Shown here: piece by piece, positions 1,227-1,616 of the stretch
Layout: every line of letters starts with the position of its first letter
Numbering within the stretch: position 1 is the stretch's first letter
NCBI RefSeq assembly: GCF_055900595.2
Contig: NZ_CM148325.1
Length of the DNA stretch: 64,000 nt
Direction: 5' to 3' (one strand)
Position numbers and translations under genes: made by a program
Notes under the pieces: generated by a model
Told to the model about the DNA's origin: nothing
Databases searched by the model: none
The model's input: only the letters and a program-made list of their open reading frames with translations

Positions 1227-1616
1227 ATGAAGAAACAAAAATTCTTTATTGTGAGTTCTATACTTGTAATGTGTTTATCTACCAGTCATATATCTTTGGC
1301 TTCCGGACTGGATAAAAATATGCAGAGCCTTGCAAGAAATATGAGCACTCTACAATCCTCTGGTGATAAAAAATCTCTATTAAATGCTCTTGATATGATG
1401 GACAAAGCTGTAAATGCTTCCATGAATACTCTTCCTGAAAAAATAAACAGCAACGATAAAGTCGCAGTGGAAAGTTATAAGAATGAGTTGAAGAAACTAC
1501 AAAATGAAATCAATCTTGCAAAAGAGAAGGTTGAGTCGGGGAATATAGAGTCACTACGTGATGCTCTGGATAAAATGAATAATATAAAACTGGAAGGCCA
1601 CCGAAAATTCAGATAA
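1227..1616 (+). CDS. cytochrome b562 family protein (CybC-like), secreted
   Basis: 129 aa with N-terminal signal peptide; mature part aligns by eye with cytochrome b562 (LDKNMQSL versus LEDNMETL; C-terminal EGHRKFR versus AYHQKYR); Met and His heme-ligand positions conserved; AT-rich. Confidence 0.6.
   Translation: MKKQKFFIVSSILVMCLSTSHISLASGLDKNMQSLARNMSTLQSSGDKKSLLNALDMMDKAVNASMNTLPEKINSNDKVAVESYKNELKKLQNEINLAKEKVESGNIESLRDALDKMNNIKLEGHRKFR

Follow-up and report, generated by a model that had tools for sequence, protein, structure and literature searches.

Cytochrome b562 of Escherichia coli (CybC; P0ABE7; PDB 256B) is produced as a precursor of about 128-129 amino acids in which a signal peptide precedes a bundle of four helices and some 105 residues, with a Met at mature position 7 and a His near the C-terminus, within an H-x-K-[FY]-R tail. 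These features recur in the protein described here, the signal peptide as a predicted one. Although b562 is widely used in structural biology, for example in BRIL fusions, we know of no established physiological role, even for the canonical protein. The family is largely confined to Enterobacterales and Acinetobacter, and the housekeeping cybC gene, located between pmbA and nrdG, is present in 5425 of 5426 complete E. coli genomes.

Previous work has listed cybC among the genes induced by phosphate starvation in EHEC (PMC3978041). Another gene, L7018 of the EHEC virulence plasmid pO157, is already in the literature as coding for a putative b562 family protein, and its product was detected in E. 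coli O157:H7 at a level 6.3-fold higher in the piglet gut than in vitro (PMC3686733). In Yersinia pestis, the genes katY-cybC-cybB were predicted from co-expression to belong together and were confirmed by RT-PCR to form a single operon (PMC2231364), and CybC of this species was increased about 4.7-fold under iron starvation and listed as Fur-regulated (PMC2835676). Our literature search found no functional study of L7018 or of a link between b562 and catalase-peroxidases.

The window analysed in this work is a stretch of 64,000 nucleotides of the E. coli chromosome, and the b562 gene lies at the decayed end of a large integrated island located beside ynjA. The open reading frame list places it at positions 1227..1616 (+), where it encodes an intact precursor of 129 amino acids, exactly as given by an earlier reading of the DNA without database searches (the sequence-only reading). 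That reading had interpreted the gene as a strongly diverged, secreted b562-like protein and horizontally acquired paralogue, an interpretation which is supported by the results given below. The gene itself is backed by the frame, the Pfam match, the RefSeq record and the dN/dS values. RefSeq names the protein "cytochrome b562" (WP_001354052.1); this annotation, as well as the membership in the clade of pO157 L7018, lay beyond what a reader of the sequence alone could know.

An HMM search against the b562 family gave a significant, full-length match to Pfam PF07361 (Cytochrom_B562; E 7.7e-16, 59 bits), in which query residues 28-129 were aligned with model positions 2-102 of 102, and the proposed alignment along the whole mature length was thus borne out. 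A profile built from 29 family members scored the reading frame at 6e-46, and the NCBIfam model NF011632 (cytochrome b562) matched it with an E value of 1.2e-19 and 70.9 bits, below its curated equivalog cut-off of 130. Sequence comparison with the PDB returned b562 chains only, weakly (best E 5e-4), and the alignment covered residues 3-106 of their 106. With E. coli CybC the protein shares 22-24% identity, in line with the divergence noted before, and the loop between helices 2 and 3 is two residues shorter than in CybC. The two genes also differ in their location, since pmbA-cybC-nrdG is a near-universal locus whereas the gene of the window occupies an island beside ynjA in 0.5% of the genomes. 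By score (70.9 versus 130) and by locus, it is not the CybC equivalog.

Because query residue 28 pairs with residue 3 of the mature chain and query residue 129 with residue 106, Met32 corresponds to Met7 and His125 to His102 of the mature cytochrome. The sequence-only reading had placed Met and His at the haem-ligand positions, and this assignment stands: the alignments predict the codons at 1320-1322 (+) and 1599-1601 (+) to specify the axial ligands Met32 and His125, respectively. His125 is shared by all of the 29 aligned family members and Met32 by nearly all of them, and within the clade described below neither residue varies.

The first 25 residues, MKKQKFFIVSSILVMCLSTSHISLA (1227..1301, +), show the n/h/c pattern of a signal peptide, with a basic stretch at the N-terminus that leads into a hydrophobic core and with small side chains at -3 and -1, and cleavage is predicted at SLA|SG. 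Residue 1 of the 106-residue mature b562 chains corresponds to residue 26 here. The protein would accordingly be a substrate for Sec export to the periplasm, as judged from these features. A lipoprotein reading, in which Cys16 of the motif LVMC would be lipidated, was rejected because this Cys is not conserved in the clade and because Met is atypical at -1. Separately, the mature protein (1302-1613) contains six Met residues conserved in the clade (32, 39, 57, 58, 66 and 117) per 104 residues, which exceeds canonical b562.

An AlphaFold2 model built on the 29-sequence alignment had a mean pLDDT of 83.8, with values above 90 in the mature part and below 50 for nearly all of residues 1-24. It comprised helices at residues 28-44, 48-66, 78-103 and 107-128, arranged as an up-down-up-down four-helix bundle. 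In a Foldseek search against the PDB, the top 50 matches were b562, engineered b562 derivatives or b562 fusion proteins. Against stand-alone b562 chains, including haem-bound 256B, the TM score was about 0.90 (target-normalised), with an rmsd of 1.3-1.5 Å over 104 columns (TM 0.90 and 1.4 Å for 256B itself), and in the superposed model Met and His sit in the ligand columns. Structure prediction hence agrees with the fold and the Met/His placement expected by the sequence-only reading, and the model, Foldseek and the alignments together delimit a predicted mature bundle of 104 residues at 1302..1613 (+).

Outside the ligands, the protein retains the H-x-K-[FY]-R motif at its C-terminus as well as three columns kept throughout the family, Leu55, Pro70 and Met58. 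Tyr101 of CybC is replaced by Gly, a residue that is frequent at that column in the family, and the alignment reveals two further pocket differences from CybC, F65L and R98K. One could envisage that the bundle has lost haem binding and now acts in another way, as a structural element, an adaptor or a binder of another ligand. The low identity to CybC (22-24%), the equivalog score well under 130, the three pocket changes (Y101G, F65L, R98K, by alignment) and the Met-rich composition would all fit such a loss; against this, both ligand residues have stayed invariant while clade members differ at 30-50% of positions, and the C-terminal motif and the Leu55, Pro70 and Met58 columns have been kept. 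We regard a loss of haem binding as very improbable. We conclude that the gene is a real and intact one which, to judge from its sequence, codes for a predicted secreted four-helix haem protein of the b562 family, in which haem b would be bound between Met32 and His125.

The reading frame is preceded by a Shine-Dalgarno sequence, AGGAG (1215..1219, +), located 7 nt before the ATG, of which AGGA is kept in variants of the gene. About 24 nt upstream of the ATG lies a -10-like hexamer, GATAAT (1198..1203, +), a candidate promoter element only; alignment of upstream regions showed that its position is conserved and that it reads TATAAT in variants with 77-80% nucleotide identity. A consensus promoter scan found no full -35/-10 sigma-70 site upstream of the gene. 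Since PhoX neighbours related loci, a Pho box was also looked for upstream of the gene, and reading by eye revealed weak half-site matches only. Two candidates were discarded, namely a Fur box at 1192-1210, which has 14 of 19 consensus matches and overlaps the -10-like element but is equalled by 13% of shuffles of the AT-rich region, and an antisense reading frame of 55 amino acids (1286..1453), which was unsupported.

Downstream of the gene, the hairpin reported by the sequence-only reading at 1651..1688 (+) proved to be real. It starts 35 nt after the stop codon and has 12-nt arms (1651-1662 and 1677-1688), and the 101 nt around it fold with -20.7 kcal/mol (z -3.9), a value which none of 200 shuffles reached. 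A terminator scan did not call it, because it lacks a clean T-run. The hairpin is kept downstream of the variants with 77-80% nucleotide identity, in which the innermost arm pair, by the loop, shows one compensatory change from A-U to U-A; this single event would favour selection on the stem. An Rfam scan of positions 800-2600 returned nothing meaningful apart from one sub-threshold snoRNA match (E 0.34), so the hairpin belongs to no known RNA family. The stem probably marks the end of the transcript or stabilises it, and as an intrinsic terminator it would be weak at best.

The surroundings of the gene are AT-rich, as had been pointed out, with a G+C content of 0.29-0.33 across about 900-1950 compared with about 0.5 further on. 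An IS5 remnant (about 349-929) precedes the gene, and a frameshifted YebF-family gene (2114-2466, -) follows it. The frameshift splits the latter into two reading frames on the minus strand, 2251..2466 with the signal peptide and N-terminal part and 2114..2287, and RefSeq annotates only a C-terminal piece of 57 amino acids ("YebF family protein"). Remnants of an ecf-type operon, all of them pseudogenes, occupy 3263-5565 (+): a frameshifted polysaccharide deacetylase gene (about 3315-4135, +), a family-4 (GT4) glycosyltransferase pseudogene (about 4135-5080, +) and a truncated phosphoethanolamine transferase gene (about 5161-5565, +). A tyrosine recombinase gene (about 5631-6818, -) marks the island boundary, and it is followed by the core genes ynjA (about 7006-7554), ydjZYX, xthA and the ast operon. 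The stretch 3263-4840 is 81-85% identical in nucleotides to ecf1-ecf2 of pO157, which means that the island of the window and this EHEC virulence plasmid have a b562...ecf backbone in common. Upstream of the gene, genomes with the island carry PhoX, broken iron ABC transporter genes, a PerC-family regulator and ICE genes, with PhoX about 5-7 kb upstream of the b562 gene in the full island. Neither the window nor those parts of the island that were read upstream of it in two other genomes contained katP-like DNA. The core catalase gene katE (HPII), located at about 26.7-29 kb of the window (from L011 38730-40991), is coincidental and unlinked to the b562 gene.

In 27 of 5426 complete E. coli genomes (about 0.5%), the 1.2 kb around the gene is present with 100% identity, and it is chromosomal every time. 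As cybC is present in 5425 of the same genomes, the gene of the window is an additional, horizontally acquired paralogue. The origin proposed by the sequence-only reading is thereby upheld, and the island context, with its integrase, IS remnants and ICE genes, agrees with it.

Relatives of the protein are few. A word-seeded search of 5.8 billion proteins retrieved only E. coli proteins and one from Klebsiella, at 89, 79, about 71 and 60-69% identity, and HMMER searches of 1.84 billion cluster representatives gave one cluster at 71%, one at 49% and then fragments or ordinary b562 proteins at about 34% or less. In those 1.84 billion representative proteins no donor lineage is visible between 49% identity (L7018) and about 31-34%. 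At the DNA level, clade variants were found in 152 of the 5426 genomes; of their 175 places, 128 are on plasmids, APEC ColV plasmids among them. A protein-level search of plasmids gave 586 records, of which 499 carry the variant with roughly 50% identity. DNA similarity among variants ends at the gene ends or within about 90 nt of them, and the neighbours differ from place to place (PhoX and an autotransporter of 1165 amino acids; a LysR regulator and an allantoin-type cluster; IS1, IS2 or IS3), with no constant partner gene among the loci read for the subclade with 70-100% identity. The variant with roughly 70% identity lies between the PhoX phosphatase gene and the autotransporter gene on IncFII-type contigs (L002-L005, 4821-12616). 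The gene of the window is an IS-flanked orphan and a self-contained unit made up of ribosome site, reading frame and hairpin.

Another accessory b562 paralogue, of 127 amino acids, was observed on Salmonella F-type plasmid contigs (L098 and L099, 6001-6384). It lies in the leading/transfer region, between an SLT lytic transglycosylase gene and hok and near psiA, psiB and ssb, an unexpected site for a cytochrome.

Pairwise Nei-Gojobori comparison of three variants gave dN/dS values of 0.15-0.28 when the whole gene was compared and of 0.11-0.24 when the comparison was confined to the mature part, at dS values of 0.6-1.3. Such low ratios indicate purifying selection on the protein of this small, mostly plasmid-borne E. 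coli/Klebsiella clade, to which the gene belongs. The copy in the window may be idle, because its neighbouring genes are pseudogenes, and its intactness says little, given that the genes around it no longer function and that the 27 copies do not differ from one another. It might then be a functionless passenger, intact through recent arrival, stranded without a partner in a decaying island and probably silenced in AT-rich DNA. Decay has reached nearly every neighbour (the IS5 remnant and the YebF-like, deacetylase, glycosyltransferase and phosphoethanolamine transferase genes), identity over 1.2 kb across 27 genomes would leave no time for decay of the gene itself, and neither a consensus promoter upstream nor katP nearby was found. 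However, reading frame, Shine-Dalgarno site and hairpin have all stayed intact, purifying selection acts on the clade taken together, and the L7018 protein is made in vivo (PMC3686733). Moreover, solitary IS-flanked copies persist on many plasmids, which suggests that the gene is useful alone. On balance we consider a functionless passenger unlikely.

The more distant relatives lie next to catalase-peroxidase genes. On pO157, L7018 starts 46 nt after the stop codon of katP, which encodes a secreted catalase-peroxidase, and is followed by an IS, by espP and by the ecf deacetylase and glycosyltransferase genes. The katP-b562 tandem occurs on two further plasmids, in one of which katP is truncated by IS3, so that the L7018-type variant (about 50% identity) was behind katP in three of three plasmids read. 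Outside the clade, the relative that comes closest is P0063 of E. coli, which has 124 amino acids and shows 31% identity to the window protein and 38% to L7018. Its gene lies 53 nt after one for a product of 730 amino acids which carries a signal peptide and shares 77% identity with KatP. This locus (L095, 3755-6375) represents a second, diverged KatP-like and b562 tandem in E. coli. With the peroxidases 77% and their b562 partners 38% identical, the small protein changes far more quickly than the enzyme beside it. From the window protein, identity declines from 49% with L7018 to 31-38% with the katP-linked P0063 and 22-29% with CybC, a gradient that makes a katP-linked ancestor the parsimonious reading.

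As a control, genomes were scanned with KatP. The matches listed, which rest on a universal KatG motif and do not include Yersinia katY, comprise 80 generic katG loci (60-67% identity, mostly outside Enterobacterales), and at none of these 80 did a b562 gene lie within 4 kb. This control is weak, because b562 is itself largely restricted to Enterobacterales and Acinetobacter. On pO157, the 46 nt that separate katP from L7018 also hold a G+C-rich hairpin (L009, 6540-6590), GAGGGAGG-GCA-CCTCCCTC, just before the L7018 ribosome site; this hairpin might be an attenuator or processing site setting the ratio of katP to b562.

The three katP/katY-b562 tandems, on pO157, at the second E. coli KatP-like locus and in Y. 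pestis, suggest a physiological partner for b562. Overall, we find it likely that the gene of the window codes for an accessory periplasmic cytochrome of the b562 family which acts as an electron carrier and was ancestrally linked to katP. After Sec export and removal of the 25-residue signal peptide, the protein would fold into an up-down four-helix bundle of 104 residues, hold one non-covalent haem b between Met32 of helix 1 and His125 of helix 4, and serve as a small carrier for one-electron transfer in the periplasm. Its ancestral job would have been that of a redox or haem partner of the periplasmic peroxidase KatP; a role as peroxidase partner is most likely because distant members of the lineage lie directly behind the gene for a secreted catalase-peroxidase. 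Our best guess is a redox partner, a haem supplier being less likely. Here the gene would have been parted from its katP-type partner and left between the IS5 remnant and the decayed ecf-like genes, and the orphan may work with other host components or may be a simple passenger.

Instead of carrying electrons, the protein might buffer, chaperone or scavenge haem in the periplasm, for example by delivering haem b to exported KatP or by sequestering haem of the host. Such a function would suit the close pairing with katP, since the periplasmic KatP requires haem b, as well as the remnants of iron ABC transporter genes and the autotransporters near related loci. It would also suit the response of Y. 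pestis CybC to iron starvation (about 4.7-fold) and its listing as Fur-regulated (PMC2835676). By contrast, the cybB gene of the Y. pestis operon encodes a membrane cytochrome b561 and points to electron flow, and the Fur-box-like site at 1192-1210 in the window is no better than chance (13% of shuffles). Six-coordinate Met/His ligation, besides, is characteristic of electron carriers that hold their haem tightly and not of haem transfer proteins. Haem handling thus appears distinctly improbable, and the electron carrier remains our preferred reading.

A bolder extension of the electron-carrier reading, which we put forward only tentatively and think rather unlikely to be correct, holds that b562-type cytochromes are dedicated periplasmic partners of the secreted catalase-peroxidases KatP and KatY and pass on electrons for H2O2 reduction outside the cytoplasm. 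Electrons of the quinone pool would reach b562 by way of a b561, CybB for instance, and pass on to the peroxidase, and orphan mobile copies would use whatever peroxidase or b561 the host has. If true, this would explain what a protein used for decades as a model in folding and protein engineering does physiologically. The locus in the window matters little alone, since it is an accessory gene that lies in a decayed island and already has its annotation, and the idea of a katP partner is the only novel angle; the clade, for its part, is carried on virulence plasmids of EHEC and APEC, and its pO157 member is induced in the gut.

Among known systems, the window protein is closer to L7018 (49% identity) than to CybC and other b562 proteins (22-31%). 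L7018 (WP_001172748.1) is of equal length, has identical ligands, aligns over the full length and falls into one clade with it, and both genes lie upstream of ecf-type polysaccharide deacetylase and glycosyltransferase genes. While L7018 is located between katP and espP, the gene of the window has no katP and has the IS5 remnant before it and the YebF-like pseudogene after it. Solitary b562 genes on E. coli plasmids of the ColV type and others (e.g. WP_000595317.1 on p1ColV5155) are nearer still, with 71% protein and 77-80% DNA identity; they have the upstream 90 nt and the downstream hairpin in common with the gene of the window and are likewise flanked by IS elements, but they lie on plasmids instead of the chromosome and have a LysR regulator and an allantoin-type cluster as neighbours. 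Just as L7018 is a described putative family member, the gene of the window has already been named by automated annotation. Finally, katY-cybC-cybB of Y. pestis, in which a b562 gene is co-transcribed with that of a secreted KatP-type catalase-peroxidase (PMC2231364), as is found near relatives of the window gene, is located on the chromosome and also contains cybB, which codes for the membrane cytochrome b561; the likeness considered here is that of the gene arrangement.
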